A stretch of DNA of 64,000 bases from Candidatus Aenigmatarchaeota archaeon (GCA_016185435.1 JACPNN010000004.1:73635-137634), one strand, 5' to 3'. Counted from the first letter of the stretch, positions 18,337 through 54,669 are shown. Notes: generated from the letters alone by a model not told the origin. Program-made: numbers and translations.

Positions 18337-19259
18337 TGTGCTATCCCGAATTAGTTAGAGCCTTCCTGTCACTATAAAATACCTCGGCAGGGTATTTATA
18401 GCCTATAGCGCCGCATGGCCTCCTATAGTTCCAGTATCTAACGAACTTACCGTGGTCGCCTTTGGTGACCCATATCTCCGCCTCATAGCAGCCATGGAAA
18501 TTCTCAATCTTGCCGCAGGTAGTCGGTCTCTTTACAGTGCTGTGGATAACCTGCACTCCCTGCTGTTCGCAGAACAGCTCGAAATCTGTCAGCTGTCCGC
18601 TCAGGTTGTTCCTGAACTGGCTGCCGTTGTCTGTCAGTATCTGCTCCGGAGTCCCGTATCTCCTGAAGGCTTGCGCTACAAGCCTTATTGCATTCTCCAT
18701 CGTGGCTTCATCGAACTTCTTTGACGCCGCGACAAACCTCGAATGGTCGTCATAAAACGTCAGCATGGGATTGCCGATCAGCACATCCTTCCAGTCTCCC
18801 TGCCACAGGGACATGCTGTGCTGCCTTTCCCATCGAGTCCTGCCCCATGTCCTTCTTTCCCTGGTTATGGGGCTGTTGAGGTTCTTTTCCTTGATGAGCT
18901 GGTATATGCGGTTATGCGGTATGTGCACCCCATGGTGCACATCGAGATGTCCTTCTATCTTGGTCGGCCCCCAGCGATAGGCTTTCCTCCATATCTGGAT
19001 CCTCCTTGAATCGTTGGCGCCTATGGTGTATCTGGCCTTCGGTCCAGGCTTCCTCTTGTTGACAAGGGAGGCGTACTCGCCTTTGTTTATCCGCAACTTC
19101 CAGAGAAAGTAAGTGCTTTCCGGTATATTCAGCTCTCTCCGTATGTCTATGTCGCTCCAGCCTTCTCTTAGCTTGAGCAGCATCATTGCTATCTTGTTGT
19201 CCCTGTCCATCGAATCACCTCATCCTGTTATAGGTGACTCCAACTAATAGGGATAGCTC
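18337..19259. mobile_element. Insertion sequence (about 923 bp) with a single DDE/rve transposase gene, imperfect terminal IRs and a 16-bp flanking direct repeat
   Basis: Left end TGTGCTATCCCGAATTAGTTAGAG (18337..18360). The right end is its inverted complement GCTATCCCTATTAGTTGGAG (19239..19258). The 16-mer ATATTTAAATGCTTTT occurs directly on both flanks (18321..18336 and 19260..19275). Confidence 0.75.
18341..19210 (-). CDS. DDE transposase, integrase-core (rve) type
   Basis: 289 aa. N-terminal HTH, then an rve-like catalytic core (WQGDW...D...LTDNGSQF...E). Confidence 0.8.
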   Translation of the reverse strand: MDRDNKIAMMLLKLREGWSDIDIRRELNIPESTYFLWKLRINKGEYASLVNKRKPGPKARYTIGANDSRRIQIWRKAYRWGPTKIEGHLDVHHGVHIPHNRIYQLIKEKNLNSPITRERRTWGRTRWERQHSMSLWQGDWKDVLIGNPMLTFYDDHSRFVAASKKFDEATMENAIRLVAQAFRRYGTPEQILTDNGSQFRNNLSGQLTDFELFCEQQGVQVIHSTVKRPTTCGKIENFHGCYEAEIWVTKGDHGKFVRYWNYRRPCGAIGYKYPAEVFYSDRKALTNSG

Positions 19260-28800: not shown

Positions 28801-29367
28801 ATGGCATCAAAGAAAGCAGTGAAAATAACATATTTCGTCCACGGCTCAACATCTGACAACGAGAAAGGCATTGCCTCGGGATGGAACAATCCGGGCCTGT
28901 CTGAACTTGGAAAATTGCAATCTCTCGAACTGAAGAAAATCATCAGAAACAGGGGATTCGATGCCGTCTTCTGTTCAGATCTGAAAAGGGCTGCAGAAAC
29001 GGCTGAAATTGTTTTTGGAGGCAGGGCGGAGACAATCCAGGATGAAAGACTGCGAGAATGCAATTATGGAGAATCAGCAGGCTGTAAATCAAAGTCGATA
29101 GATGCTATTTCTGAAAAACATATAGAGGAGCGATTTCCTGGCGGGGAGTGCTACAAAGATGTTGAAAAGAGGATCAGAAGCTTTTTGGATTATCTTTTGA
29201 CAAATTATTCAGAGAAAAGCATCGCCATGGTAGGCCACAGGGCCCCGCAGCTGGCGCTTGAAGTGATCCTGAAAAACAAAACATGGGAGCAGGCAATACA
29301 GGAAGATTGGAGGCTCAAGGGGCAAAAAGGTTGGAGACCAGGGTGGATGTATTGGCTGGAAGCATAG
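28801..29367 (+). CDS. Histidine phosphatase superfamily (phosphoglycerate-mutase-like) protein
   Basis: RHG-like catalytic N-terminus (ITYFVHGSTSDNEKG) and GHRAP later in the protein. Confidence 0.7.
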   Translation: MASKKAVKITYFVHGSTSDNEKGIASGWNNPGLSELGKLQSLELKKIIRNRGFDAVFCSDLKRAAETAEIVFGGRAETIQDERLRECNYGESAGCKSKSIDAISEKHIEERFPGGECYKDVEKRIRSFLDYLLTNYSEKSIAMVGHRAPQLALEVILKNKTWEQAIQEDWRLKGQKGWRPGWMYWLEA

Positions 29368-29396
29368 GTTTATAAATTTTACGATTAAGTTGAATT

Positions 29397-29861
29397 ATGC
29401 CAGCAGCAGTTGTTTATGTAGGACTGAACAAGAACGACAACCAACTCCAATACCTAAGAGACAACTTAGGTAAACTTGGAAAAACCGAAGAAGTCAATGA
29501 GATTTTTTGGGTAGTGGATATACCAGACAGGATTTATAGAAGTAGACGTGAAAAGTTGCTCTTTAATATTGGCGGAAGACATTTTTTCAGAAAAAGAATA
29601 GCATCTCAGGTGAAACAGATTGCTGAGAGCCCTAGCTATACTTCGTTAATGGATGAGAATCAGAAAAGAGCAAGGGATCTGAACACGATGCTTCAGCAAG
29701 CTCGCATGCAGGCAGGATATAGAGATTATGAGCATATAGCCGGTAGCCCATTTTATATAGATCCTAATGTCACGGAAGTCTTTGTGGACGCAACAGAAGC
29801 GAGACGGTTTGCATCAAAAGCTCTAGAAATAGAAGAAAACAAGATAGCAGCATGGATGTAA
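29397..29861 (+). CDS. Hypothetical protein
   Basis: 154-aa ORF with no recognisable motif. Confidence 0.35.
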   Translation: MPAAVVYVGLNKNDNQLQYLRDNLGKLGKTEEVNEIFWVVDIPDRIYRSRREKLLFNIGGRHFFRKRIASQVKQIAESPSYTSLMDENQKRARDLNTMLQQARMQAGYRDYEHIAGSPFYIDPNVTEVFVDATEARRFASKALEIEENKIAAWM

Positions 29862-29872
29862 GATTAAATCGT

Positions 29873-30997
29873 CTATTTCCTCTTCTTCTCCATCGCTTCC
29901 CTGACCCTCTCGACAGCTATTTCCATGGCGGCCTTTCTTGGCATGATTCTTTTCCTTTCAGCCCTCTCGAGGGCAAGCATGGTGTTCCTTGTTATCCTCT
30001 CCTCGACTGCCTTGAACATGAAGTGCCTGTTCTGGCCTGTGTACTCTGAATAGCTTGATATCACGCCCCCTGCATTGGCGACAAAATCAGGAACGACAAG
30101 CACGCCTTTATTATAGAGCTTCTCCTCGATTTCAGGCTTCATGGGGATGTTGCTCCCCTCGACAATTATCCTTGCCTTCACATTCCTCCAGTTCCTTTCA
30201 GTGATGATGTCAGGCAGGGCTGCAGTCACAAGGATGTCCACAGGGAGCTCGAAGAGCATGGAGCCTGGAAGAACATCTCCGGGCCTGTACTTGGTGACGC
30301 TGCCCTTCTCTTTTTTCATCTTTTCGAGCTTCTCATAGTTCAGCCCTCTCTTGCTATAAACAGCCCCCTGGGAATCGGAAACAGCGACAACTTTTGCTCC
30401 TTCCTTCTCAAGGAATTTCATGGCGAATGTCCCGACATTGCCGAAGCCCTCTATGGCGACTGTCGTCTTTCGTATGTCTATGCCTGAATGTTCGCAGGCA
30501 ACCTTTGTTGCATGGAAAACTCCAAAGCCTGTCGAGCCAAGCTCATGGGGCAGCCCGCATTTTTCCTCATCAACGCACATGTTTGCAGGCTTGCCTGTGC
30601 AGGCCTGCCAGCTCCCGACGGCAAGGGAAAAGGCCGCCATCTCCTCTTCACCTGTGTTCATGTCCGGGCCGGCGACATATTCTGATGGGCAAATTGGCCT
30701 GATCGCTTTGCCAAAAACTTTTATCATATCAAACTTTTGCTCTTTTGTAAGCCTCTTCACATCAGCTGCTATGCCTGCCTTTGCCCCGCCAAAAGGCAGA
30801 TCGGCTAACGCATTCTTCCATGTCATCGTCCTTGCGAGCTTTGCGACCTCTTCCACGGTCACTGTGGGCGTCATCCTGATTCCGCCTTTGCCCGGGCCGA
30901 GGGCCAGATTATCAAGGACGACAAAGCCGTGCATCTTTGTCCGGGGATCATAGACCTCGAAAATCTTTTCAGGCCCGAATTCGTCAAAAGTTATCAT
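29873..30997 (-). CDS. Glu/Leu/Phe/Val dehydrogenase family protein (short form, about 374 aa)
   Basis: Catalytic lysine motif GGAKAGIAAD, and a NAD(P)-binding GFGNVG motif downstream. Confidence 0.8.
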   Translation of the reverse strand: MITFDEFGPEKIFEVYDPRTKMHGFVVLDNLALGPGKGGIRMTPTVTVEEVAKLARTMTWKNALADLPFGGAKAGIAADVKRLTKEQKFDMIKVFGKAIRPICPSEYVAGPDMNTGEEEMAAFSLAVGSWQACTGKPANMCVDEEKCGLPHELGSTGFGVFHATKVACEHSGIDIRKTTVAIEGFGNVGTFAMKFLEKEGAKVVAVSDSQGAVYSKRGLNYEKLEKMKKEKGSVTKYRPGDVLPGSMLFELPVDILVTAALPDIITERNWRNVKARIIVEGSNIPMKPEIEEKLYNKGVLVVPDFVANAGGVISSYSEYTGQNRHFMFKAVEERITRNTMLALERAERKRIMPRKAAMEIAVERVREAMEKKRK

Positions 30998-31123: not shown

Positions 31124-32599
31124 TCACGCCTCATCCTGAACAAATTTCTTCCCTTCCTTCAGCACCATTTCAGCCCTCGCAAGCTCGTGGCCTATGTATG
31201 CGGCATGGTCGAGCATGGAGATGAGATTTTCATTGATTATTCTCCTGTAAAGAACTTGGGCCTTGTTTCCCCTGAAGACATAGCCTGTCGGCAGGCCTTC
31301 CCTTGTATAATGCTCGACTATTATCTCCCCATTTTCGACCTTAACGATGAAATAGCCGTTCTCGTCCTCTGAGAAGGCCGCTGGTTTGTCCGCATGGTAT
31401 TTGTCTATTATGGCCTTGGCCTCCTTCCAGTTGTTCTCATAGATGTGGGCAGATGTGGATACTGTTATCAGCTTCCCTGCCTCCATCTCCAGCTCTTTGG
31501 CCATCTGCCTCTGCAGCCTCCTCAGGGCGAAGGCATTGAGGGGCCATGCCCCGAACATGTCATTGGACCTTATTATTGCCGTCTCATAGAGCTTGTTGCC
31601 TTTGATGCTCCACACTATCTGGGTTATGCACGGGGGGTCTTTTGACAGGCTGTCTGCCTCGACATTCCATGTGACTGCAACAGCCCGCCTCGTGTGGGGA
31701 ACTTCTTTCAGGCGCTTCAGGGCATTCTCCACCTGATTCACAATGCCGGAGGGCGTGGCATATTTCAGCAGCCTGTTGCCGTATGTGTACTCCACACCCT
31801 CAGGCTTCTCCTCTGAAAAGAATGTAGCGAAGTAGCTTTCGAGGTCCTTTTCCGTTATGTTCAGCCAAGGCGCTATTTTCTCATCATCGCCTTCTATTAC
31901 AGTGACGAGATTTATGACCTCATTCTGCCTTGCCTGGTACTCAGTCTGCTTCTCCTCCCCGAATTTCATCACCACATCAAGGGCCTTCAGCCATACATCG
32001 GCAATGCTCCTGCCCCTCACTTTAAAAGCTACTTCCCCTGATTTCATCTCCGCAGGCCTTGTCTCGAGCTCTGTTATGAAGACAGCCTCCATGAATGGCT
32101 GCTCATTCTTCAATTTCTCGACAGCATTTGGAAGCTCCTCTTCCTTCCCTCTCAAATCAATCACCTTCACATGGCTGCGGAAACTTTCGATAAGGCAGGG
32201 ATCCACATTCGAATCGATATAGCCTGACGAGCCGATTATTTTCCTGTCTGAATCACAGCCGCTGCTGACGAAATTCATCAGGGCCTGGCCGCTCTTCATG
32301 AGATCTGCGCCGCAGAGGGCTATGTATCTTATGGTGGGCTTCGCAAGGATGTTCTTGAGCATGGGGTTTATCCCCTGGACCGTGTAAAGGTTGCCGCAGA
32401 CTGCGTATTTGTTCTCAGGCACCTTACTGTGGATTATTTCCTTCCTTGTCCAGAGGGTGCATATCCCCACTGAGCTGTCAGGATTGCCCAGCTTCAGCTC
32501 GTCCCTGTAGAATATCGGCCATTCCATGTCATCAGGCCAGATTTGGATGCAGGCCATAAAAATGTTGGGGATTGAAAAAGGGAACGACCCCATTCTCAA
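31124..32599 (-). CDS. thyA: Thymidylate synthase (ThyA-like core) with large N- and C-terminal extensions
   Basis: Core motif PHTRRAVAVTWNVEADSL...PCITQIVWSI parallels the ThyA RR..W..PC active-site region. About 250 extra N-terminal aa and a C-terminal tail (DUF4346-like). Confidence 0.65.
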   Translation of the reverse strand: MRMGSFPFSIPNIFMACIQIWPDDMEWPIFYRDELKLGNPDSSVGICTLWTRKEIIHSKVPENKYAVCGNLYTVQGINPMLKNILAKPTIRYIALCGADLMKSGQALMNFVSSGCDSDRKIIGSSGYIDSNVDPCLIESFRSHVKVIDLRGKEEELPNAVEKLKNEQPFMEAVFITELETRPAEMKSGEVAFKVRGRSIADVWLKALDVVMKFGEEKQTEYQARQNEVINLVTVIEGDDEKIAPWLNITEKDLESYFATFFSEEKPEGVEYTYGNRLLKYATPSGIVNQVENALKRLKEVPHTRRAVAVTWNVEADSLSKDPPCITQIVWSIKGNKLYETAIIRSNDMFGAWPLNAFALRRLQRQMAKELEMEAGKLITVSTSAHIYENNWKEAKAIIDKYHADKPAAFSEDENGYFIVKVENGEIIVEHYTREGLPTGYVFRGNKAQVLYRRIINENLISMLDHAAYIGHELARAEMVLKEGKKFVQDEA

Positions 32600-32751
32600 T
32601 ATGCTACAGGCTGAAATATGCGGCTGATGCGGGCGGAAGCGATCAAGTAAGTTTTATTGATATTGATTTTTGCTGGAAAACATGGCGGCTGCATAAATTC
32701 AGCGGATAAAAAAAGAAAGCGGCATCTGGAAGCTTCTTTTTCTGACAAGTT

Positions 32752-32790
32752 GCATATGACCTTGAGTTGAGAGGGGGTGTGTGCGACGCA
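32752..32790 (+). repeat. Copy 1 of a recurring intergenic motif (TTGCATATGACCTTGAGTTGAGAGGGGGTGTGTGCGAC)
   Basis: Shares the core GCAyAkGrCCTynrGTTGAGArG with three other intergenic sites in the same orientation. Confidence 0.5.
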
Positions 32791-32861
32791 AAGCTACTCA
32801 GAACCCATTTAGCACTCCACCGCATGGCGTCCCTTTCAGAGTGGCTGTGACTTGTGCGCCA

Positions 32862-33617
32862 TCAATCGATATCAACCCATTGAACAAACGAGTATGATTT
32901 GAGCTGATCCACAAGCTCATCGCTATGTGCATCGCATGATGGAGGGAGTAATAGATAGCGACTGCTGGTCCATAGGGTGCGGCCCACGATGCGCACGTTA
33001 ATTGACTCCTGGATATGGTATTTCTGGCTGATGGTGGTGGAGTTTATGAATGTAATCAGCAGTTCACAAGATTTCGATTTGTTTTGAGCGGTCGACGCCA
33101 TAACCTCCCGCTTGATAATAGTATCTTGCATACGACGTTTGAGCTCTTGAGGTACAGGAACGATAAGCTCTGAACCAGGCGAGAGAACATATCCGTGTCC
33201 CTTTGCATCTAGCTTAATAATGGTCCCCGAAGCCTTGTGCTCCGCGTAGACCTCATATCGGCCCTTGGGTAATCGTAACAACTCACGCGTTGAGTTCAAT
33301 AACTGACCCTTGGCTGCTTGGCTGCCTGTAGGCAATTGATAAACCTCAAAATCGTACGCGGGATTTTTCAAGAGTGTTTCATTGATTTTCTGAGAAGCAA
33401 TAGCTACTTGTTCATACGTTCTTCCAGGAAATTCCTTTGGTACTAATGAAGGGATCGTGTCTAATGCTTTCTCATTGATGCCTTCTAAGATTAACATGCC
33501 AAACTCAGGGTCAGAAGCTCCTTTTTGCTCGCCCTCATAAAATCGCTGGACAATATAGATTCCAGAAGTAGCTAGGATTATGCTCAAGAAAACAACTATG
33601 ACAATTTTATTTGACAC
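32862..33617 (-). CDS. Membrane-anchored hypothetical protein
   Basis: 251 aa. N-terminal TM helix IVIVVFLSIILATSGIYIV. Confidence 0.4.
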   Translation of the reverse strand: MSNKIVIVVFLSIILATSGIYIVQRFYEGEQKGASDPEFGMLILEGINEKALDTIPSLVPKEFPGRTYEQVAIASQKINETLLKNPAYDFEVYQLPTGSQAAKGQLLNSTRELLRLPKGRYEVYAEHKASGTIIKLDAKGHGYVLSPGSELIVPVPQELKRRMQDTIIKREVMASTAQNKSKSCELLITFINSTTISQKYHIQESINVRIVGRTLWTSSRYLLLPPSCDAHSDELVDQLKSYSFVQWVDID

Positions 33618-33704
33618 CTAGTTCCACCTTTTAGTATGCCATTTAATTCTAAGTGTGAGTACCTTATAAGTGAAACTCACAAGAAATGTCAACCTCCTTT
33701 GCTC

Positions 33705-33745
33705 GCATAGGGCCTCCGGTTGAGATGGGGCGTGCGACCGAGAAG
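33705..33745 (+). repeat. Copy 2 of the intergenic motif (GCATAGGGCCTCCGGTTGAGATGGGGCGTGCGACCGAG)
   Basis: As above. Contains a second, partial iteration (GACGGGGTGTGTGGCAGG) downstream. Confidence 0.5.
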
Positions 33746-33835
33746 ACGGGGTGTGTGGCAGGCTGATTCCACTCCTTCTTTCCACCGAGTTTTGAGACTA
33801 TAAGCTTTATATACTAATTTGAATTAGTACTAATT

Positions 33836-35212
33836 ATGATTAGGTTTATAGACAGGGGAGATGAAATAGGGCTTCTCGAAGAAGAATGGAAGAAGGAGAA
33901 AGCAAGATTTATAGTGGTCTATGGAAGAAGGAGAATAGGCAAGACAAGGCTTTTGATGGAATTTGCGGCTGATAAGAAAGGCGTCTATTTCATTGGAGAA
34001 GATACAAGCAGGCAGATACATATCAGGGATTTAAAAAATGCACTTGCAGATTTCTTCAATGACAGCTTCTTGAGAAATACAGAAATTAGAGACTGGAGCA
34101 ACTTTTTTGAATATCTTAAGAAAATAATCCCTGAAAAAGAGAGGTTTTACATAATAGTGGATGAATTTTCCTATTTTATAAAGGCTGATGCTTCAATAAC
34201 AAGCTCCCTGCAAAAGTTCTGGGATCTTTTCCTTTCCCGCACCAATGTGTTTTTTGTGGTTTCAGGCTCCATATTCGGCCTTATGGAAGAAAGCGTTTTG
34301 TCCTCTTCCTCGCCTCTTTATGGCAGAAGAACAAGGGATATCTTGCTTGGCCAGCTGCCGGCAAGGCATGCGGCAATGTTTCTCGCATCAGATATTGAAG
34401 AAAAGCTCAAAACAATCATGTGTATTGGAGGTATACCTGAATACCTCATCAAGGCTTCTGAATCTGATAATTTCAAAAGCTTCATAGAAAATGAATTTTT
34501 CAGAAAAAGCGGATATTTCTACAGGGAGCCATATTATCTGCTTTCCCAAGAATTCAAGGAGATAAAGACGTATTTTTCCATCATAAATGCCATCGCCTTT
34601 GGGAACACAAAAGCAACAGAGATAGCAAACTTTGTCGGAATTGATTCAAGGGAGATATACCCCTATCTTGAGAATCTCATAAGGCACGGATTTATAAAAA
34701 AGGAAATTTCTGTTCTTGGCGACAGAAAGGGCGGAATTTATTTAATTGAAGACAACTTTTTCGATTTCTGGTTCAATTTTGTCTATCCGAACAGGAACAG
34801 CATAGAGAGAAAGAGCTATTCTGCCAGCGAGCATGATTTGAACCGTTATCTAGGAAAGAGGTTTGAGATGCTAATCAGAAATGATATATTTCAAGAAATT
34901 TTTGGCCCAAAATTTGAAAAACTCGGCAGATGGTGGCACAAGGACAAAGAGATAGACATTGTAGCTTTAAGCGAGCAAACTAAGGAAATACTCTTTGCAG
35001 AATGCAAGTGGCAGGAAAAGGTTAATGCTGAAAAAATTGCAAAAGAGCTTGCTGAAAAATCAAGGTTTGTAGACTGGAATTTGAATGAAAGGAAGGAAAC
35101 TTTTGCGGTATTTGCCAAAAGTTTCAGGAAGAAAATCTATGAATTTGGAGGGAAAAAAGTTTATTGCTTTGACCTCAAGGATTTGGGGAGGGTGATGGAA
35201 AACGGCAAGTAA
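33836..35212 (+). CDS. Archaeal AAA ATPase (Arch_ATPase / DUF234 family)
   Basis: Walker A VYGRRRIGKTRLL and Walker B IIVDEFSY. 458 aa. The gene is distinctly AT-rich compared with its neighbours. Confidence 0.8.
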   Translation: MIRFIDRGDEIGLLEEEWKKEKARFIVVYGRRRIGKTRLLMEFAADKKGVYFIGEDTSRQIHIRDLKNALADFFNDSFLRNTEIRDWSNFFEYLKKIIPEKERFYIIVDEFSYFIKADASITSSLQKFWDLFLSRTNVFFVVSGSIFGLMEESVLSSSSPLYGRRTRDILLGQLPARHAAMFLASDIEEKLKTIMCIGGIPEYLIKASESDNFKSFIENEFFRKSGYFYREPYYLLSQEFKEIKTYFSIINAIAFGNTKATEIANFVGIDSREIYPYLENLIRHGFIKKEISVLGDRKGGIYLIEDNFFDFWFNFVYPNRNSIERKSYSASEHDLNRYLGKRFEMLIRNDIFQEIFGPKFEKLGRWWHKDKEIDIVALSEQTKEILFAECKWQEKVNAEKIAKELAEKSRFVDWNLNERKETFAVFAKSFRKKIYEFGGKKVYCFDLKDLGRVMENGK

Positions 35213-35303
35213 ATCTCGCCTGCTTTCGCACTCCATTCCCATGCGTTTTATTTCGACTCTCAAGACAGGCTGATGGTGAAAAACCCCGGTATTATAACAA
35301 ACT

Positions 35304-35338
35304 TGCACAGGGCCTCGGGTTGAGAAGTGGTGTACGAC
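35304..35338 (+). repeat. Copy 3 of the intergenic motif (GCACAGGGCCTCGGGTTGAGAAGTGGTGTACGAC)
   Basis: As above. Confidence 0.5.
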
Positions 35339-35452
35339 AAATAACATCCAAATTTTGTTTGCAGGCAACTCGAAGAGCTCATTATCGAAAGAGGCTCACG
35401 AGATTCCCTTGGGATATGCTCCCGTAGAGATTAGAAGCAATAGGCTACACGG

Positions 35453-35857
35453 CTACACCGGGAATTGGGTTAGTAGATCGACGAAAATTGGTAGTTTCCT
35501 GCAATACCTCTTTCCCTCAATAGTGGGTTTAACGTGTAATGAAGAGATAGATCCGTCTGCCGGTTGCTCTCTAGGATAGTTGAAATGATCGACAAGGCCT
35601 GCCACTTGTAATCGGTCAATACTCTTGCCAATCTCATCTCTGGTAAAACCTTTCATAGAAAAATCTGTATACAAAGCCCCCCTCCTTCTTCCATCCCTAT
35701 AATAAACTGTATACAAGATCTCTAAATCTAAGTTGCTCTGGACGCCATAGACGAAACTTCTATTGATTTTTTGGATAGGGATTCTATCACAAGGAGGAGA
35801 TCTCTGCGATGCCATACAAAGGATATATGAGATCGTAAGTTTTAAATTCTTGATCAT
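35453..35857 (-). CDS. Hypothetical protein
   Basis: 134-aa ORF between repeat copies 3 and 4. Confidence 0.3.
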   Translation of the reverse strand: MIKNLKLTISYILCMASQRSPPCDRIPIQKINRSFVYGVQSNLDLEILYTVYYRDGRRRGALYTDFSMKGFTRDEIGKSIDRLQVAGLVDHFNYPREQPADGSISSLHVKPTIEGKRYCRKLPIFVDLLTQFPV

Positions 35858-35879
35858 GGACTAGCGTGTCTAATCGCTT

Positions 35880-35916
35880 GCATATGGCCTTGAGTTGAGA
35901 GGTTTACCGTCAGCCC
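35880..35916 (+). repeat. Copy 4 of the intergenic motif (GCATATGGCCTTGAGTTGAGAGGTTTACCGTCAGCCC)
   Basis: Matches copy 1 at 23 of the first 24 positions. Confidence 0.5.
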
Positions 35917-36033
35917 TTATCACGAGATGAGAAAAGACAGCCTCTCTTCTGCTTCTATCGCTGCTGAAAGGCAGAAAGAGGGTGCGCAAGCCAAGCCTGT
36001 TGAATATGTCTTTAAATATCTTATCAGCAAGTA

Positions 36034-36366
36034 ATGGTTATGGCTAACTACACGAGGATTGGGATTGCAAAAAAACTCATCAGGGCATTTAAGGAACTCG
36101 ATAGGGCCTTAATGAGGTATTCGGCCAATCCAGATTTGTTTTCCAAGCGTGAAAGAGACATGGCGCTTAGTGTTGGCTATTGCTCTGCTCTCAATAGTTT
36201 GGTGAATAATCCTGTGGAAGAGCCTGTCATTCTGAATGCCGACATAGATGAAATCAGAAAAGGCATCAGAATTTTTAATAAATATTTTGATAAGTGGAAC
36301 GAAAAAGGGAGGGAGGCCGAACGGGCTGAAGCAGGTTATATCTCTCCAGTTCAATCCTCCCAATGA
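36034..36366 (+). CDS. Hypothetical protein
   Basis: 110-aa ORF. Confidence 0.35.
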   Translation: MVMANYTRIGIAKKLIRAFKELDRALMRYSANPDLFSKRERDMALSVGYCSALNSLVNNPVEEPVILNADIDEIRKGIRIFNKYFDKWNEKGREAERAEAGYISPVQSSQ

Positions 36367-36702
36367 GTTGCGTTTCTTTTCCGTTTATCTCACCCTTCTT
36401 CTCAGCTCGGCCAGCTCCTCCATGATCTCGTCAAAGCGCCTGTCTATCAGCTCTATGACTTCCTCATGCGGCTCGGGCCTTCTCCTTTCCTGAAGCCTTT
36501 CGTGCGGCAATGGCATAGTTTCACCTCCTTAGCCCTTAAGGGCCATGAATATCAGTGTTGCGAAGCATGCAAAGATGGGGGCTGTCGTAGGCAGTATCAC
36601 TTCAATCCTGAGGCCGAAATGGCTCAGCAGGAGGCTGAAGACGGAGGATAGTGCAAAGGAGCAAATAATGCCTGCCATCATGGCCCTGAAGCTTCTTTCG
36701 GT

Positions 36703-36786
36703 TTTCATAGGAAAGTCGAAATTACTGATTATCTATTGGAAGAGCAGATATTTAAAGGTTTCGGGTTTCATAGGAAAGTCGAAATT
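36703..36786. promoter_or_regulatory. Two 21-bp direct repeats (TTTCATAGGAAAGTCGAAATT) in a divergent promoter region
   Basis: Identical copies at 36703..36723 and 36766..36786, upstream of the ArsR-like gene at 36827. The first copy overlaps the start of a possible minus-strand small membrane ORF. Confidence 0.45.
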
Positions 36787-36826
36787 TACTTTAAAACTTT
36801 AATATTAAACCCGAAATAATAATTAT

Positions 36827-37222
36827 ATGCCGCTTTTTGAGGATATCGTCCACAAGGCCCTTGCAAGCGAGATAAGGAGAAAGATACTTCTGGCCTTGGG
36901 CGAAAAGGAGCTTTACCTGACAGAGCTTGCAAAAAAGCTGAAGAAACAGCCCCAGACAATTGATTTTCACGTCGAGATCCTTGAAGAGATAGGTGTTATC
37001 GGGGGCGAGGTCAAGAAGGGAAAGAAATTCTATTTCCTCAAGAACAAGGAAATCCTGAAATTCCTGGAGAATAGGAGGCCTGTCCCGGAGGAATTCAGGC
37101 CAAGGCCGCCGCATGAGATGGTTCTGGATGCTGTGGACAAGCTGGAGAAAAGGATAGAATCCGTTGAAGGGAAAATTGATGCGATATACGAAGGCCTAAA
37201 GAGGACGAGGCTGATAAGATAG
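36827..37222 (+). CDS. ArsR-family / winged-helix transcriptional regulator
   Basis: 131 aa. N-terminal wHTH (HKALASEIRRKILLALGEKELYLTELAKKL). Confidence 0.6.
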   Translation: MPLFEDIVHKALASEIRRKILLALGEKELYLTELAKKLKKQPQTIDFHVEILEEIGVIGGEVKKGKKFYFLKNKEILKFLENRRPVPEEFRPRPPHEMVLDAVDKLEKRIESVEGKIDAIYEGLKRTRLIR

Positions 37223-37561: not shown

Positions 37562-38881
37562 GTGCCCTCTGTGAAGCCCAGAAACGTCCTTATATTGGGA
37601 GCAGCCGGAAGGGATTTCCATAATTTCAATGTCTTCTACAGGGGCAGGAAGGAGTATAATGTGTGTGCTTTTACTGCCGCCCAGATACCAGATATTTCTG
37701 GTAGAAAATACCCAAAAGAGCTGGCAGGGAAACTGTATCCGAACGGGATACCCATTTACCCTGAGGAAAAGCTTCCTGAAATTATCAGAAAATTCAGGGC
37801 TGATGATGTCGTCTTCTCCTATTCGGATGTCAGCCATGAGCATGTGATGCACCTTGCAAGCATTGCCATAGCCAATGGCGCAAATTTTGCCCTTCTCGGC
37901 TCGGACCAGACAATGCTGAAGTCCACAAAGCCTGTGATAGCAGTATGTGCCGTAAGGACAGGCTCAGGGAAAAGCCAGACAACAAGATGGATAGCGAATT
38001 ATCTGAGGGACAATGGGAAAAGGGTTGTGGTTGTCAGGCATGCAATGCCTTATGGCGATCTGAGAAGGCAGGTTGTCCAGAGGTTCGAAACATACTGGGA
38101 TCTTGAAAGGCAGCACTGCACGATTGAGGAGAGGGAAGAGTATGAGCCCCATATAGCTCTTGGTATTGTGGTCTATGCGGGCGTCGATTATGAGAAAATA
38201 CTAAGAAGCGCTGAAAAGGAAGGAGATGTAATCCTGTGGGACGGGGGGAACAATGACCTGCCCTTCTTCAAGCCGGACCTGCACATTGTTGTGGCCGATC
38301 CTCACAGGGCGAGCCATGTGATGAAATACCATCCCGGAGAGGCGAATGTGAGGATGGCGGATCTGGTCATCATAAACAAGGTTGACAGCGCGCACAGGGG
38401 GGAAGTCGACCTGCTGAGGAAAAATATCCGCATTGCAAATAAAAGGGCAAAGATTCTGCTTGCAAGATCGCCGATAGATGTCGAGATGCCTGACATAATA
38501 AAGGGCAAAAATGTCATTGTTATAGAGGACGGGCCGACAATCACACATGGCGGCATGCAGTTCGGCGCTGGAACGATTGCAGCAAGGAAATACAAGTGCA
38601 GGATCATTGATGCCGAAAGGTATGCTATTGGCAGCCTAAGGGAGACATACAAGAAATACCCTCATCTTCAAAAAATACTGCCTGCTATGGGATATGGAAA
38701 AAGGCAAACAGAGGAACTCGAAAAGACTATAGATAAGGCCAAATGCGATGCTGTCATAATAGGAACGCCTGTCGACCTCAGGAAGATAATCAGGATCAGC
38801 AAGCCAACAACAAGGATATTCTACAGCCTGCAGCCCCTGAAGCCGAAAGATCTGGAAAAGGAGCTTGCAAGGTTTATCTGA
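37562..38881 (+). CDS. P-loop protein resembling cyclic 2,3-diphosphoglycerate synthetase
   Basis: 439 aa with an internal Walker A (RTGSGKSQTT). Size and N-terminal pattern recall cDPG synthetase. Unverified. Confidence 0.35.
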   Translation: MPSVKPRNVLILGAAGRDFHNFNVFYRGRKEYNVCAFTAAQIPDISGRKYPKELAGKLYPNGIPIYPEEKLPEIIRKFRADDVVFSYSDVSHEHVMHLASIAIANGANFALLGSDQTMLKSTKPVIAVCAVRTGSGKSQTTRWIANYLRDNGKRVVVVRHAMPYGDLRRQVVQRFETYWDLERQHCTIEEREEYEPHIALGIVVYAGVDYEKILRSAEKEGDVILWDGGNNDLPFFKPDLHIVVADPHRASHVMKYHPGEANVRMADLVIINKVDSAHRGEVDLLRKNIRIANKRAKILLARSPIDVEMPDIIKGKNVIVIEDGPTITHGGMQFGAGTIAARKYKCRIIDAERYAIGSLRETYKKYPHLQKILPAMGYGKRQTEELEKTIDKAKCDAVIIGTPVDLRKIIRISKPTTRIFYSLQPLKPKDLEKELARFI

Positions 38882-38902
38882 TTAAAATTTATGGGAAGGC
38901 TG

Positions 38903-39847
38903 TCACGAATAATGTATCATCTTCTTCTTTTTCATTGACTCCTCAGAAATCTCAAGCAGCCTTACGATTTTCAGGCCGACCTCTGCATCGGCAACGGAAA
39001 AGCCCCTGCTTTCAGAGCATCTTATGAATTCCCTCAGCTCGTCCTGCAGCGTGTTGTTGGGGATTATGTCCACATCATAATAGCTGTTCTGCTCATTGTC
39101 ATAAACGCTCACTTTCTGCCTTGCGCAGTCAGCGAAAATTGTCTTCCTGCTCCCGACAAAAACGACTTCTCTCTGCTTCCTTGGAGTAAGCCAGCTCACC
39201 TCGATATTCACCAGCGTGCTGTTCAGCCTGCAGATGATGAATGCCGCTTCTGCATGCTTCTGCTGCCTGTATGATCCTCCCACGCAGGATATCTCATCCG
39301 GAAGGGCATTGAATATGTAATTCACTATGTCAAAAGGATGGGGGGCAAGGTCGAATATGACGTCCCTGTCAGCGTATATCGGCTCGAGGTTGGACCAGTT
39401 CAGCTTCAGGAGGTAAGGTGTGCCGATATCGCCTTTGATGAAAGAGTTTCTGATGAAATTGACCGCATTGTTGAAGCGGAATATGTGGCCGACAGAAAGG
39501 TGCAATTTCCTTTCATTTGCGAGCCTTATGAGCCCCTGCCCCTCCTCGGATTTGAGGACAAAGGGCTTCTCCACAAGGGTATTTTTCCCCGCCCTTGCAG
39601 AATCGGATGCGACCTGGAAATGGGTGCTGTTGGGGGTGCATACGCTGACATATCTGATTTCCTTGTTTTGAAGGAGCTCCTTATAATCGGCATAAATCCC
39701 TTTAACAGGGTAGAGCTCCCTGCATTTCTGAAGGCTCTCTTTTGAAACGTCTGCAGCATAGACCTCCAGCCCCAGCTTTATGTATTCCTCAATGTGCTTT
39801 TTCCCCCAGAAGCCTGCCCCTATAACCCCAGCAGCCCCCTCATCCAT
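38903..39847 (-). CDS. Gfo/Idh/MocA-family NAD-dependent oxidoreductase (WbpB-like UDP-sugar dehydrogenase)
   Basis: N-terminal Rossmann GAGFWGKKH and a Gfo/Idh/MocA C-terminal domain. Confidence 0.8.
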   Translation of the reverse strand: MDEGAAGVIGAGFWGKKHIEEYIKLGLEVYAADVSKESLQKCRELYPVKGIYADYKELLQNKEIRYVSVCTPNSTHFQVASDSARAGKNTLVEKPFVLKSEEGQGLIRLANERKLHLSVGHIFRFNNAVNFIRNSFIKGDIGTPYLLKLNWSNLEPIYADRDVIFDLAPHPFDIVNYIFNALPDEISCVGGSYRQQKHAEAAFIICRLNSTLVNIEVSWLTPRKQREVVFVGSRKTIFADCARQKVSVYDNEQNSYYDVDIIPNNTLQDELREFIRCSESRGFSVADAEVGLKIVRLLEISEESMKKKKMIHYS

Positions 39848-40928
39848 TGCAGAAACTCCTTACCGACTCTGAAATGTACTTCACTTCCTCGGTTTTCAAT
39901 TGAGGGTGGATGGGCAGGCATATGACTTCCTTTGACAGCCTTTCAGCGGCAGGATAGTCCCCTTCCCTGTAATTGAACAATTTCCTGTAAATGGGCTGCA
40001 GATGGATCGGGATGGGGTAATGCGAGCTGGTCTGTATTTCTTTTTTTTCGAGGTATCCGGCAAGGCCGTTCCTGTCCTTCGCCCTGCAGGCAAAAAGGTG
40101 GAATGAGCTTTTTATGTAGGGCGGGATTTTTGGGAGGGCAAAGCCTTCCAACTCTTTCAGCTCCCTGAAATAGACGGAGGCCAAGCTGTGCCTGGCTTCA
40201 TTCCACCTGTCAAGATGCTTCAGCTGCACTATGCCTATCGCCGCATTGACTGTATTCAGCCTTGACGTATATCCCAGCACATCATGCTCATACTGGCCAA
40301 TCCTTCCGCAGTTCCTGAGCTTTGCCGCCATATCTGCAATTTTTTTGTCATTTGTCACTATCATTCCTCCATCTCCTCCGACAGTCAGGTTTTTTGTGGA
40401 ATAAAATGAGAAGCAGCCGACAGTCCCGAGAGAGCCTGCTTTCCTGCCTTTGTATGTCGCGCCATGCGCCTGGCACGCATCCTCCACTACAAAGAGGCCA
40501 TTCCTGCCTGCAATCTCGTTTATCCTGTCCATCTCGCAGGGCGTGCCATAGATATGGATCGGAAGTATGGCCTTTGTTTTCCCTGTTATTTTTTCTTCTA
40601 TCCTGTCTGCATCGATATTGTAAGCCTCCCCGTCAGAATCGACAAAAACAGGCTTGGCGCCTGCATGTATGATTGCGTTGGAGCTTGCTATAAAGGAAGA
40701 GGGGCATGTTATAATTTCCTTTGACTGTACGTCAAGAGACTTCAAAGCCAGCTCCAGCGCATTGGTGCCGGAGGAGGTAGAGACGGCATGCTCAGCGCCG
40801 CAGTATCTGGCAAAGAGCTCCTCGAATTTCGATACGCTTTCCCCAAGCACAAGCCTCTCGTTCTGAAGGGCATGTATGGCAGCTTCCTCCATCTCCTTCG
40901 TGATTATAGGCCTGAAAAGCTGTATCAT
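39840..40928 (-). CDS. DegT/DnrJ/EryC1/StrS-family PLP-dependent sugar aminotransferase (WbpE-like)
   Basis: DACQAHGATYKGRKAGSLG...FSFYSTKNL PLP-lysine region. Confidence 0.85.
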   Translation of the reverse strand: MIQLFRPIITKEMEEAAIHALQNERLVLGESVSKFEELFARYCGAEHAVSTSSGTNALELALKSLDVQSKEIITCPSSFIASSNAIIHAGAKPVFVDSDGEAYNIDADRIEEKITGKTKAILPIHIYGTPCEMDRINEIAGRNGLFVVEDACQAHGATYKGRKAGSLGTVGCFSFYSTKNLTVGGDGGMIVTNDKKIADMAAKLRNCGRIGQYEHDVLGYTSRLNTVNAAIGIVQLKHLDRWNEARHSLASVYFRELKELEGFALPKIPPYIKSSFHLFACRAKDRNGLAGYLEKKEIQTSSHYPIPIHLQPIYRKLFNYREGDYPAAERLSKEVICLPIHPQLKTEEVKYISESVRSFCNG

Positions 40929-41392
40929 TTTCTCATCTCCCTTGCCGGGTTGCCCACAACTGTCGCTCCCGGCGCGACATCCTTTGTCACCACTGAGCCT
41001 GCTCCTATTACGGCAGCCTTCCCTATTCTCAGGCCTGGAAGGATGACAGAGCCTGCCCCTATGGAAACATTGTCCTCTACAACTGTTTCTTTAAGGCTCC
41101 AGTCAGAGGCGGATTTGGGGGAGCCGTCAGGGTTGACGGCTGCCGGATACTTGTCATTGGTGAAGCAGACATGGGGGCCTATAAAGACACCATCGCCGAT
41201 TGTGACGCCCTCGGGGATGAATGCAAAAGGCTCTATCTTGCAGTTCTTTCCCACCCTGACGCCTTTCTTTATCTCCACAAAGCACCCTATTTTTGTGCTG
41301 TCCCCTATTTCGCAGCCGAAGAGGTTGACGAAGCTGAAGAGCTTCACATTTTCCCCCAGCTTCACGCCCTCGATAACTGAATAGGCTGGCAT
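40925..41392 (-). CDS. Left-handed beta-helix (hexapeptide) sugar N-acetyltransferase (WbpD/PglD-like)
   Basis: 155 aa of hexapeptide repeats ([LIV]G..[STAV].[LIV]). Confidence 0.8.
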   Translation of the reverse strand: MPAYSVIEGVKLGENVKLFSFVNLFGCEIGDSTKIGCFVEIKKGVRVGKNCKIEPFAFIPEGVTIGDGVFIGPHVCFTNDKYPAAVNPDGSPKSASDWSLKETVVEDNVSIGAGSVILPGLRIGKAAVIGAGSVVTKDVAPGATVVGNPAREMRK

Positions 41393-41512
41393 AAGAATTT
41401 GTTGCCTGATATATATTTAAAAGCAGATTGCATATGCCTTTCAGCCCATAAGGATGTATATATTGACAAAAAGAATCAATCTATCCAGGATTTAAAAACA
41501 GGACATATAGAG

Positions 41513-42253
41513 ATGATTATGCCCCACAAAATACTCCTTATCCTTCCGGCATACAATGAGGAAGGGAAGATAGGCAGCCTTGTCAGGAAGGCAAAGAAAA
41601 GCATTGTCAGTGGCATCTTCGTGGCATGCGACGGCTGCACTGACAGGACAGAGGAAGAAGCGCGGGAAGCAGGGGCCATTGTTTCCGCCCTTGGCAAAAG
41701 ATGCGGCGTAGGGAATGCGATAAGGAGGGGCATAGATTATGCCCTTGAGAAAGGCTATGACATAGGGGTCATAATGGGAGGGGATGACCAGGATGACCCG
41801 CAGGAGATTTCTCATCTTATAAAAAAGATTGATGAAGGATATGATTTTGTCATAGGCTCGAGATACCTTCCCGGAGGAAAGACAGTGAACCAGAACCTGT
41901 TCAGGTTCCTCACCACAAAGATGTACAGCGCCTTCTTTTCTGTCTTCGCGATGAAAGGATTGAGCGATGCGTCAAATGGCTTTCGCGCATTCAGAACCCG
42001 GATATGCAAAAGCATGGACCTGTGGAGGAGCGACATTGACGGCTATGAGCTTGAGCCGGTCATGCTCTTTGAGGCCGTCAAAAATTTCAGGTTCGCTGAA
42101 GTGCCTGTCACAAAATATTATCACAAGGGCAAAAGCTATTCAAAGATGAAGGTCTTTGTCGACTGGTGGAAGATTATAAGGCCTGTCCTGTGGAAGTTTT
42201 GGGAAGGCGCGTGGGGAAATGGCGGAAAATCTTCCAGAAGGGCAGCAATTTAA
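41513..42253 (+). CDS. Family 2 glycosyltransferase (dolichyl-phosphate sugar transferase-like)
   Basis: Start placed at MIMPHKILLILPAYNEEGKIG (GT2 N-terminal motif) with a DxD later. A longer ORF from 41399 exists. Confidence 0.75.
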   Translation: MIMPHKILLILPAYNEEGKIGSLVRKAKKSIVSGIFVACDGCTDRTEEEAREAGAIVSALGKRCGVGNAIRRGIDYALEKGYDIGVIMGGDDQDDPQEISHLIKKIDEGYDFVIGSRYLPGGKTVNQNLFRFLTTKMYSAFFSVFAMKGLSDASNGFRAFRTRICKSMDLWRSDIDGYELEPVMLFEAVKNFRFAEVPVTKYYHKGKSYSKMKVFVDWWKIIRPVLWKFWEGAWGNGGKSSRRAAI

Positions 42254-42274
42254 ATCGGCTTTCCAATACAGACG

Positions 42275-43879
42275 ATGAAGCTGTCCCTGCCGATAGCAGC
42301 TTTGATTGTCTTTTCTGCGGCAAGCACAGTAGGCCTTGGAGAGCTGCCTTTTTGTTCTGACACTGACAGCGGAATAGCAGAAACTTCCAGGGGCGTTTGC
42401 TCCTCCACATCCTTAAATTTCAGCGACAGATGCTCTGGACATTTCCTCCTCGAAGGCTATTGCAAAAAAGACAGCTCATGCGGCTTCAAAGCGATAGACT
42501 GCAACAGGTTCTGCAAAGGCCAGAATTCCGGACAGGCTGGCATATGCGATAATGGGGCATGTGCTTGCTCTGCTTCTCCGCTGCCGGCATGCTCTGACAG
42601 CGACAATGGCATGGAGCCTTTCTCATCCGGCATATGCTCGGTGACAAGAAACGGGAAAACAGAAAACTTTGGGGACAGGTGCATATCGCAAAATTTCCTC
42701 CTCGAAAGGGGGTGTTCCAGGGGCAGTGATTTTTGCCAGGCAAGATTTCTCAACTGCGATTCTGAGTGCAAAAAGGCTGACAGGAATTCCCTTGGGCTTT
42801 GCACTTCGAATGCATGCTCATGCGCTCCTTCACAAAAAGGGCCCAAGATTGTGATAAGCGAGGTGTACTATGACCCTCCGGATGAGACGGATGAGTTTGT
42901 GGAGCTGTTTGTTGAAAATGCGAGCATGCTGTTGAATGTTTCAGGCTGGAAAATAACTGATTTTGACAATAACAACATCACATTGCCCTTCATTTCGGGC
43001 CTTGGAAAATCTGATTACATAGTGATATACACAGGCAACGGGACAAATGATACGGACGCAAGTGACGGAAAAGCGGCCATATACAGGAGAAGGGGTTCAG
43101 GCATCTGGACCAATACTGGGGATGAAGTCGGCCTGTATGATCGGGAAGGAAAAATACATGACTTCATGAGATATGAGGAAGGCAATGGCGATCCTGTTCT
43201 CGCGAACTGGCCTTCCAGCGACAACGGGCCTGCAGCGCCTGAAGGCGAAAGCGTGCAGCTGAATGGGACGGACATGGACTCAGGGGTGAACTGGATATCT
43301 GCATTGCCAAGTCCTGGAGGGCCGATTATTTTCAAAACTCTGTATGATGATTTTTCTGGTAACAGCCTGAACCTGACAAAATGGAATGAATCGACAGACT
43401 TCGCTTTTACTGATATGCATGGAATAAATACTACAGAAGGAGCCTATCATAACTCTCAAATTGAGACTGTATCGCCTGGCACCACAACATTTCTCACAAT
43501 GAATAGGCTCATCCAGGCCACCGAAAGGCTTGAATTTGATATCAAATATGTGTCTGGGGAGGGGAACAACATATTCTACTATTATTTCAATGGGATAGCG
43601 CCACAACACCTCTTTAACTGCAGCAACTGTGGAACAATTGGATTTTGGAATACAAATGGATCTATAGGTACTGATTTTGGAATATACCATTTCAAAATCG
43701 AATTTTATCAAACAGGTGTATATTGGCAAATTAGAAAACCAGATAGCACGCTTTTCATTGCAAATTTCACTAATAGCCCAATCCTGATTGCACCCTATAG
43801 TGTGAAGTTTATTACAGCAACTGGACATAACGGCCTTGTTCACTTCGATTACGACAACTTCACCATCGTGAGGCTATAG
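42275..43879 (+). CDS. Secreted Cys-rich protein with lamin-tail domain (LTD)
   Basis: Signal-peptide-like N-terminus, two Cys-rich repeat modules, then the LTD signature KIVISEVYYDPPDETDEFVELFVEN...GWKITDF. Confidence 0.6.
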   Translation: MKLSLPIAALIVFSAASTVGLGELPFCSDTDSGIAETSRGVCSSTSLNFSDRCSGHFLLEGYCKKDSSCGFKAIDCNRFCKGQNSGQAGICDNGACACSASPLPACSDSDNGMEPFSSGICSVTRNGKTENFGDRCISQNFLLERGCSRGSDFCQARFLNCDSECKKADRNSLGLCTSNACSCAPSQKGPKIVISEVYYDPPDETDEFVELFVENASMLLNVSGWKITDFDNNNITLPFISGLGKSDYIVIYTGNGTNDTDASDGKAAIYRRRGSGIWTNTGDEVGLYDREGKIHDFMRYEEGNGDPVLANWPSSDNGPAAPEGESVQLNGTDMDSGVNWISALPSPGGPIIFKTLYDDFSGNSLNLTKWNESTDFAFTDMHGINTTEGAYHNSQIETVSPGTTTFLTMNRLIQATERLEFDIKYVSGEGNNIFYYYFNGIAPQHLFNCSNCGTIGFWNTNGSIGTDFGIYHFKIEFYQTGVYWQIRKPDSTLFIANFTNSPILIAPYSVKFITATGHNGLVHFDYDNFTIVRL

Positions 43880-54098: not shown

Positions 54099-54105
54099 AT
54101 GAAAT

Positions 54106-54124
54106 AAGGGGCTCTGCCCCTTAT
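54106..54124. repeat. GC-rich perfect hairpin AAGGGGCTCTGCCCCTTAT; inverted copy of the element at 54693..54712
   Basis: GGGGC-TCT-GCCCC palindrome. The reverse-complement copy TAGGGGCAGAGCCCCTTA lies 587 bp away. Together they bracket the small membrane-protein gene. Confidence 0.5.
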
Positions 54125-54288: not shown

Positions 54289-54669
54289 TTACCCCTTCAG
54301 CGCCATCTTCAGCCTGTCAGGCATCATTGCCAGCGCCTTGAGTATGCCCATCAGGATTATGAATATGCCTGACAATATGAAGCCTATTCCGCCGAGCTTC
54401 AGGGTCATCAGCATAGGCGGGAAGACGAAGAAAATCGTTCTTGCCTCCACCAGTGCCGGGTTGTCGCTGCTTGTCGCAAGCTCCCAGACGTTTTTGGGCA
54501 CCTGACCTATTTCTGTAAGCGCAGGCTTCAGCGTCGTGAACTCAAGGTAGATAGCTGAAAGCACCATCATCAGGCCTATTGCTGCAAGCATCATTCCAAC
54601 CTTCGCCATCATCATGACCTTTGCCTTGGCTTTCTCAGGATCCATTGCCATCTCTTTCATGGTTTTCAC
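54289..54669 (-). CDS. Small polytopic membrane protein, hypothetical
   Basis: 126 aa, three predicted TM helices, Met/Lys-rich N-terminus. Confidence 0.4.
   Translation of the reverse strand: MKTMKEMAMDPEKAKAKVMMMAKVGMMLAAIGLMMVLSAIYLEFTTLKPALTEIGQVPKNVWELATSSDNPALVEARTIFFVFPPMLMTLKLGGIGFILSGIFIILMGILKALAMMPDRLKMALKG

Follow-up and report, generated by a model that had tools for sequence, protein, structure and literature searches.

A lineage-restricted intergenic repeat marks a strain-specific four-gene island in a Candidatus Aenigmatarchaeota archaeon

The genomes of DPANN archaea are tiny, and the gain of genes from hosts and neighbours is believed to be essential to these organisms; to our knowledge the routes by which they take up genes are largely unknown. 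In integrons, the attC sites are 55-141 nt long imperfect palindromes, with an R'' (RYYYAAC) and an R' (GTTRRRY) box, that fold as single-stranded DNA, and the cassettes are mostly promoterless, co-oriented and mobile together with their attC. Clusters of attC sites lacking integron-integrases (CALINs), with attC sites of restricted diversity, have been reported in some Aenigmatarchaeota (PMC9668308). Other short sites have a different build: the dif-type site has two inverted arms of ~11 bp and a spacer of ~6 bp (PMC2958812), and the repetitive extragenic palindromes (REPs) are palindromes of 20-40 nt with an unpaired GTAG/CGTC tag, present in high copy number and mostly as head-to-head or tail-to-tail dimers downstream of genes (PMC3733652). 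Here we describe an intergenic repeat of 25-38 nt that is found four times in a 64-kb stretch of DNA (hereafter the window) from a Candidatus Aenigmatarchaeota archaeon (GCA_016185435.1, JACPNN010000004.1:73635-137634). The repeat is real, statistically solid and lineage-restricted, and it marks a strain-specific four-gene island in this DPANN archaeon.

Four copies of the repeat in a strain-specific island

The original prediction of four intergenic copies of a short motif in the same direction was confirmed by a degenerate consensus, which had exact matches in the window at 32752, 33705, 35305 (35304 in the prediction) and 35880, all on the plus strand and all between called genes. When up to three mismatches were allowed there was one additional match in the window, at 4367-4387 on the minus strand, within an open reading frame (ORF) of 1008 aa. 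Dinucleotide shuffles gave a mean of 0.12 consensus matches and none of 100 shuffles reached five. In pairwise local alignments the motif was the sole similarity among the four intergenic regions, with z values of 4.5-14.6 in direct orientation and no similarity at all in the inverted one. Two extra bases at the left complete a common block of 25 nt (TYGCAYAKGRCCTYSRGTTGAGADG), located at 32750-32774, 33703-33727, 35303-35327 and 35878-35902, in which 17 positions are invariant across the copies. The near identity predicted for the outermost copies (c1 and c4) was borne out at 24 of the 25 positions of this extended block, and so was the extra likeness of the inner copies c2 and c3, which are identical at 30 of 37 positions; inner and outer copies differ from each other at 6-7 of 25. 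A right-hand extension, GGGG(N)GTGCGAC / GTACGAC, is common to c1, c2 and c3 and brings the full element to 36-38 nt. Copy c4 has no such extension and its likeness ends directly after GAGAGG. The four copies are:

32750-32787, plus strand: copy c1, full length, 38 nt (TTGCATATGACCTTGAGTTGAGAGGGGGTGTGTGCGAC); 43.7 bits in the covariance model; 4 nt from the hairpin at the left edge of the island
33703-33738, plus strand: copy c2, full length, 36 nt (TCGCATAGGGCCTCCGGTTGAGATGGGGCGTGCGAC); 52.7 bits; in the spacer of the divergent 251-aa and ATPase genes
35303-35338, plus strand: copy c3, full length, 36 nt (TTGCACAGGGCCTCGGGTTGAGAAGTGGTGTACGAC); 52.8 bits; in the convergent spacer between the ATPase gene and the 120-aa gene
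35878-35902, plus strand: copy c4, 5' part only, 25 nt (TTGCATATGGCCTTGAGTTGAGAGG); 20.1 bits; 3' half unpaired

The covariance model was built from c1-c3 only, and both c4 and a candidate fifth copy, c6, described below, were scored from outside the training set. In model searches that also took in the remainder of the window, a further 10 kb of flank and the relatives, c6 was the only additional candidate, and a profile search of the whole window found no further convincing copy. A match at 36097-36125 (E 2) was attributed to chance, as was the one at 4367-4387 (GCACAGGGACATCGGTTGAGA, two consensus differences, nhmmer E 0.37). In the latter, two blocks of c3, GCACAGGG and GGTTGAGA, are both present, and its host ORF (3435-6461) has no Pfam match.

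The copies share ~34 bits of information over 25 nt, plus 12 further shared nucleotides. They are too long and too alike for independent binding sites, indicating identity by descent from one sequence of ~37 nt and not convergence on a binding site. The short inverted elements that the original prediction had described at the copies do exist (TCAACC...GGTTGA and CTCTCAAG...GTTGAGAAG), but they are not common to the copies and fold no better than shuffles. Since the island sequence was assembled identically in at least seven independent sequencing runs, it is not an assembly artefact.

The island was delimited by comparison with a relative, L009 (GCA_964372825.1), that is collinear with the window over 27.5-46 kb at ~85% DNA identity. 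The comparison rests on one genome and this one informative relative, the L081 contig ending ~100 nt before the junction. By BLAST, L009 has 165 nt in place of window 32571-36386; in a more permissive alignment the left homology reaches ~32724 and the right homology restarts at 36386, which gives an insertion of 3.64 kb. Because L009 lacks this insertion, the four copies are all inside one strain-specific island. The island and its anchors are:

32746-36385, no strand: island of 3.64 kb, absent from the syntenic L009; guanine plus cytosine (GC) content 0.387-0.443 versus 0.47-0.50 in the flanks
32705-32745, no strand: left anchor, a hairpin rich in A/T and with T runs on both strands; L009 has a GC-rich hairpin at this position
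36385-36516, minus strand: right anchor, a 43-aa gene conserved in L009, with its stop codon where the right homology restarts (36386)

The island is flanked by the stop of the 43-aa gene on one side and, on the other, by the hairpin upstream of MtrA-ThyA, a MtrA-thymidylate synthase-DUF4346 fusion. It consists of four self-contained single-gene modules of differing composition, with gene orientations -, +, -, +:

32862-33617, minus strand: module A, gene for 251 aa with a hydrophobic N-terminus; no Pfam or family match
33836-35212, plus strand: module B, ATPase gene with ATPase_2, winged helix-turn-helix and DUF234 domains, GC 0.38; PADLOC candidate PDC-S27
35453-35815, minus strand: module C, 120-aa orphan (NCBI MBI2675133), NCBI start at 35815
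36034-36366, plus strand: module D, 110-aa orphan (108 aa in NCBI), between c4 and the island's right edge

The units had been described as single genes in mixed orientation, including the 251-aa protein and the ATPase, and this stands, except that the ORF taken as 134 aa codes for a 120-aa protein according to NCBI. By sequence reading, all four genes are preceded at the usual distance by a TATA-like element of their own (TTATAA at 33669-33664, TTTATATA at ~33806, AATTTAAAA at 35848-35840 and TTTAAATA at ~36008), and the modules are therefore self-contained transcription units. Successive copies of the repeat are spaced by 953, 1600 and 575 nt, each interval holding genes, and every internal joint of the insertion, as well as its left edge, has a copy.

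The island thus carries a defence-candidate ATPase and three orphan genes. Among 1.84 billion representatives there is a single cluster of homologues of the module A protein (44% identity), and the motif is absent from that locus. The module C protein has no homologue besides itself and no Pfam match; by sequence reading it may be a winged-helix protein, for which a single-sequence structure model (predicted local distance difference test, pLDDT, 40) gave no confirmation. For the module D protein there was no family, PDB or viral-contig match. Actually, none of the island proteins had a match in viral contigs or among PDB sequences, and the island DNA had none in plasmid or phage collections.

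Beyond this locus, the motif pattern had four unrelated single matches in 185,579 reference genomes (one per species) and 52 single matches, with no shared flanks, in the Joint Genome Institute (JGI) metagenomes, and two motif patterns had no match in the IMG/VR viral contigs. These patterns are strict, to the point that c6 itself would fail them, and divergent relatives could be missed. Four soil/peat metagenome contigs (L019, L040, L051 and L055) have in common GATCCAAGTTGAGCATAGGGCCTTCGGTTGAGAGGGAGCCGGAGGCTAACCATGCAAGTG, which resembles the 5' region of an unusual small-subunit rRNA; they were set aside as a chance pattern match unrelated to the motif.

The repeat as a candidate joint between gene modules

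Our tentative preference, held with limited confidence, is that the repeat is a joint or recombination site for assembling single-gene modules. The modules would be joined at the repeat by a DNA enzyme that recognises its sequence and whose gene is elsewhere in the genome. Modules, circular or linear, with one copy each would enter by recombination between that copy and one present in the array, and the outcome would be one copy per module, a uniform direction and a hybrid or truncated copy, as c4 may be, at the array end. Recognition and crossover would take place at the block CCT...GTTGAGA.G, as the likeness of c4 breaks right after it: c4 keeps the left 25 nt and is unrelated on the right side, as expected of a hybrid end site. 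Furthermore, the loop-like core is conserved above the stem that some copies may form (see below), which favours recognition by a sequence-specific protein over structure alone. The spread of GC content among the modules (0.387-0.443) and the confinement of the copies to the island support the joint-site reading, as do the four direct copies in consecutive spacers, well above the chance expectation, and the start of c1 only 4 nt from the conserved flank of an island that L009 lacks. The original prediction of cassettes bounded by recombination sites fits the presence of copies at every joint between single-gene units, but not its more specific versions, an integron or nested att (attachment) sites.

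The empty site in L009 might keep a trace of the insertion event. The final codons of the 43-aa gene are GGGTGAGATAA in the window and GGTTGAGATAG in L009, the latter corresponding to the motif core in reversed orientation. The sole GGTTGAGA octamer in 13.3 kb of L009 sits 3-10 nt from the insertion point, where the window has GGGTGAGA; by the window background rate the chance of this is ~0.0014, a post hoc estimate. The core may have been recognised by the insertion event, perhaps, or this may be a coincidence.

Several observations weigh against a joint site. To begin with the enzyme, no tyrosine, serine or HUH recombinase was found in the scanned ORFs over ~74 kb, a search that combined the scanned window ORFs with precomputed Pfam hits for another 10 kb of flank, and in which the predicted absence of tyrosine and serine recombinases from the window held. 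The sole recombinase-like gene, 14 kb off at 18341-19210 on the minus strand, codes for an rve (DDE) transposase with N-terminal HTH_32/HTH_23 domains; a link to it was rejected, with no clear terminal inverted repeats and no likeness to the motif. The repeat itself has no dyad of the tyrosine-recombinase type, the best dyad pairing 5-6 of 11 positions in c1-c4 and a fraction of 0.97-1.0 of the shuffles being at least as good. As to where copies are found, the GGTTGAGA octamer of the L009 empty site runs opposite to c1-c4, and the model searches found no direct copy of the motif there, so that the island perhaps came as one block. Copies are also missing at the right edge of the island (c4, the near twin of c1, sits 483 nt inside it) and at three other indels between the window and L009 (29322-29873, 36786/36790 and 38847-42415), and no other genome or metagenome had a related copy. 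Polymorphism of single units was not seen either in at least seven metagenome runs, whose contigs are all 100% identical; the comparison of presence and absence that had been proposed thus found the whole block to be polymorphic, being absent from L009, but none of its units.

The module B ATPase counts on both sides. It is demonstrably exchanged DNA: in L065 (GCA_964448625.1), DNA 91% identical to window 33797-35181 is found directly behind a paralogous ATPase. The L065 ATPase has no motif on either side, and the shared DNA stops short of both copies, 58 nt to the right of c2 at one end and 120 nt to the left of c3 at the other, so the motif does not belong to the mobile unit of that gene. 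In both the window genome and L065 the ATPase DNA has 36-38% GC versus 47% in the flanks. When window 33797-35200 is compared with L065 620-2255, the last ~30 nt of the DUF234 ATPase gene are instead like the 3' end of the upstream paralogue in L065 (78% over 252 nt), a sign of recombination among ATPase paralogues.

A bolder form of the joint-site reading, and an improbable one, is that of an undescribed kind of array building in DPANN archaea, with single-gene modules captured serially at a ~37-nt site that is not an attC, with a GTTGAGA core, by a recombinase or nuclease whose gene is located elsewhere. Entry would then have been at the core-like octamer of the L009 empty site. If the repeat is a joint site, it would represent a compact gene-capture mechanism distinct from integrons, and the motif model would provide a sequence handle for such arrays and for their enzyme.

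Rival readings and neighbouring loci

A doubtful though serious possibility is that the copies form a small family of intergenic hairpin repeats, either DNA of the type of REPs or miniature inverted-repeat transposable elements (MITEs) or a short structured RNA, that arrived with the recently acquired DNA or spread in it. Such repeats might have a role at transcript ends or be the target of a transposase acting in trans. Part of the case comes from the candidate fifth copy:

55892-55927, minus strand: candidate copy c6 (TTGCATACCACCTAAAGCTGGGAGGGGTTGTGCAAT); 20.2 bits, rough E 0.009; nhmmer E 0.13

This solitary copy is ~20 kb from the island and on the other strand, where it starts right behind the TAG stop of a 51-aa zinc-ribbon-like gene and precedes a TTTTAT run, and it was the top match outside the island for the model built without it; with a broader model that included c6, the window, L009 and L065 gave no additional members. 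The other part is the candidate stem, 5' TYGCAYA with 3' UGUGCRA, which gives 6-7 bp in c1, c2, c3 and c6 (all seven outer pairs being intact in c6) and leaves GUUGAGA in the loop. The stem cells are paired in 92% of cases versus 17-69% for a slid partner, the changes are one-sided (U-G / C-G / U-A) and keep the pairing, and the G-U pairs work on the motif strand only. The folding and covariation analysis that had been suggested supports the hairpin only so far: the stem is possible in four copies, but these have no two-sided compensatory change, 378 of 500 shuffles reach the observed score and the folding energies are ordinary (minimum free energy z -2.3, -0.7, +1.2 and -0.3). Copy c3 has a C-A mismatch in the stem, c4 lacks the 3' half, and conservation is higher in the loop and the CCT block than in the putative stem. 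There was no Rfam match in the window, and a single candidate in ~70 kb outside the island, a low copy number, speaks against a repeat family. Unlike REPs (PMC3733652), the clustered copies are arranged head-to-tail, two of them are between divergent genes and there is no GTAG/CGTC tag. The hairpin repeat would also leave the clustering, the uniform orientation and the conserved loop unexplained.

The surroundings of c6 contain other repeats. Two glutaredoxin-like paralogues, at 55394-55642 and 62313-62576, both on the minus strand, have in common a 135-nt stretch 95% identical (55572-55706 / 62506-62640) that spans the upstream region and the first ~20 codons, the remaining gene being ~65% alike. 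Between these repeats there is a 6.9-kb cluster (aldehyde dehydrogenase, saccharopine dehydrogenase, aminotransferase, Pyr_redox_2 oxidoreductase and epimerase), metagenome contigs break exactly at them, and c6 is found 186 nt from the left one. This suggests gene conversion or a duplication-mediated insertion. In addition, a pair of 23-nt inverted repeats at 54099-54121 / 54694-54716 (96% complementary), each arm with the GC-rich palindrome AGGGGCTCTGCCCCT, flanks a 126-aa membrane-protein-like ORF (54289-54669), and has the look of two bidirectional terminators forming a pair, or of the termini of a small element.

It is unlikely that the copies are cis-regulatory sites, upstream activating or operator, for the leftward promoters of one co-regulated block that arrived only once, and that they are the target of a DNA-binding protein encoded in the island, possibly that of 120 aa. 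The position of the copies gives this reading its appeal. Measured by eye on the sequence, the left end of c2 is 33 nt from the TTATAA of the 251-aa gene and that of c4 is 29 nt from the AATTTAAAA of the 120-aa gene, both copies being upstream and in the same orientation to these minus-strand genes. The two TATA-like elements are correctly placed for both starts, and the NCBI start of the 120-aa protein agrees. Both minus-strand genes are bracketed by copies and the ATPase gene is between c2 and c3. The absence of any fixed relation to gene orientation, as first proposed, was thus half right: both minus-strand genes are bracketed, and c2 and c4 are placed alike upstream of TATA-like elements. 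Furthermore, a T/A-rich run is found ~31 nt after c1, and arrival as a single block fits the absence of copies in L009. On the other side, the information shared by the copies far exceeds what a binding site needs, and there is no dyad or direct half-site structure. Copies c1 (74 nt past the stop of the 251-aa gene) and c3 (114 nt past that of the 120-aa gene and 90 nt past that of the ATPase) follow gene ends, and at c3 there is no gene that could be regulated. As for the T-rich run after c1, it is a terminator-like hairpin kept in position in L009; c6 faces the antisense strand of a coding region, and the 120-aa protein, for which DNA binding would be conjecture, has no Pfam match and a pLDDT of 40. 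Either as a hairpin repeat or as an operator, the motif would be a lineage-specific curiosity, yet a useful mark of a recently acquired island.

Very unlikely, finally, is that the copies are remnants of the 3' end of an opposite-strand coding sequence, duplicated by each integration of an element into that gene end, as happens in tandem integrations where the att site is in a protein gene. The opposite strand reads ..TP.LN.R(P/S)(Y/C)A(S/T) in all copies, with a stop within 0-4 codons in four of the five, and four of the seven codon differences between c2 and c3 are synonymous; but the frames have 13-72 codons and are unrelated upstream of the motif, the synonymous excess is matched by 13% of random substitution sets, and there is no intact target gene at either end of the array or at the L009 site.

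Other variable loci were found in the window. The indel at 38847-42415 (versus L009 3570-5908) is a second variable island, of the surface-glycosylation type and without any copy of the motif: the window has a sugar-modification cluster (GFO_IDH_MocA oxidoreductase, DegT aminotransferase, hexapeptide transferase and GT2) that is replaced in L009 by a PMT_2 glycosyltransferase and a 228-aa gene. At 29322-29873 (versus L009 11416-11468) a 154-aa ORF (29397-29861) that is absent in L009 follows the His_Phos_1 gene, and this phosphatase has 129 aa in L009 versus 188 aa in the window. Just upstream of an ArsR/HTH_20 regulator gene (36827-37222) there are a 28-nt direct repeat (96%) at 36696-36723 / 36759-36786 and an imperfect palindrome at 36759-36816, TTTCGGGTTT...AAACCCGAAA. 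These repeats and palindrome (36696-36816) are conserved in L009 and L081 and are probably the operator of that gene; both relatives have ~480-495 nt extra between the repeats and the gene (a 148-aa ORF in L081) that the window does not have. A second archaeal-type ATPase gene, with AAA_14 and DUF4143 domains, is located at 11560-12828 on the minus strand beside PIN-domain genes of the flank annotation, in a stretch with a GC content of 0.42-0.43, and this region may be another defence or variable locus.

Comparison with known systems

Some known families were rejected at once. Arrays of clustered regularly interspaced short palindromic repeats (CRISPR) have regular repeats and spacers of 25-50 nt; no CRISPR or tandem array was found in the window, and the spacings of the repeat, 575 nt at the shortest, contain genes. 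Group II introns begin at the 5' end with GUGYG, followed by domain I, with domains V/VI downstream. The likeness of the GTGCGAC / GTACGAC extension to such an end was discarded, the sequences beyond it being unrelated and no intron model matching at E <= 10. The window has no tRNA or tmRNA genes, and the possibility of a tRNA or att fragment was rejected on this ground.

The likeness to REPs, to the hairpins formed by REP doublets (REPINs) and to MITEs consists in the size of the motif, within 20-40 nt, the possible imperfect hairpin, the intergenic location and one solitary copy after a gene end. Apart from the missing tag, the head-to-tail arrangement and the two copies between divergent genes, already described, the motif differs in its very low copy number in the DNA available (five copies in ~74 kb), in a loop more conserved than the stem and in that no RAYT or IS200-type gene was seen. 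The plasmid dif (pdif) sites of Acinetobacter are similar in that single genes are bracketed by a short site with no dedicated recombinase nearby, but they are 28-bp dyads that alternate in orientation, whereas our motif has no dyad and a uniform direction.

Tandem att arrays, of the pNOB8/SSV type in archaea or formed by integrative mobile elements exploiting Xer (IMEX) at dif in bacteria, are comparable in their direct repeats of 25-37 nt at the joints, here with the outermost pair identical at 24 of 25 positions, and in the foreign composition of the DNA between the copies. In contrast, the island has no integrase gene, whole or split, and neither a tRNA nor a dif target, its units are single genes of 0.6-1.6 kb and not elements, its inner copies have diverged, and its motif has no dyad of 11-bp arms with a spacer of 4-10 bp. 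Nested integrations at a repeated att site, one of the first proposals for this locus, found no support, for lack of a direct copy at the L009 empty site and of a tRNA gene.

A true integron-type array, i.e. a CALIN with unusual attC sites, is extremely unlikely in spite of a GTTGAGA that fits six of the seven positions of the R' box GTTRRRY, of one site per single-gene unit and of the restricted attC diversity of the CALINs reported in some members of this phylum, since by sequence reading there is no R'' (RYYYAAC) partner within 150 nt, there is no attC-type imperfect palindrome of 55-140 nt (146-nt DNA folds of both strands of the four copies gave z -0.9 to +1.8), the genes have mixed orientation and their own promoters, the L065 ATPase has no site, no IntI or Phage_integrase was found among the scanned window ORFs and 10-kb flank Pfam hits, and the motif core is absent from the supplementary text of PMC9668308. 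The integron-like array of the original prediction falls with it. The locus differs from integrons and CALINs also in the length of the motif (25-38 nt versus 55-141 nt for attC), in the lack of an L'' partner and in an L009 site without an attI-like remnant. It resembles them in having one short site per single-gene unit, all in a uniform direction, in a variable strain-specific array with no adjacent integrase, as in CALINs, and with a GTTRRRY-like heptamer in the conserved core. The repeat is integron- or att-array-like in function at most, and a member of neither family.

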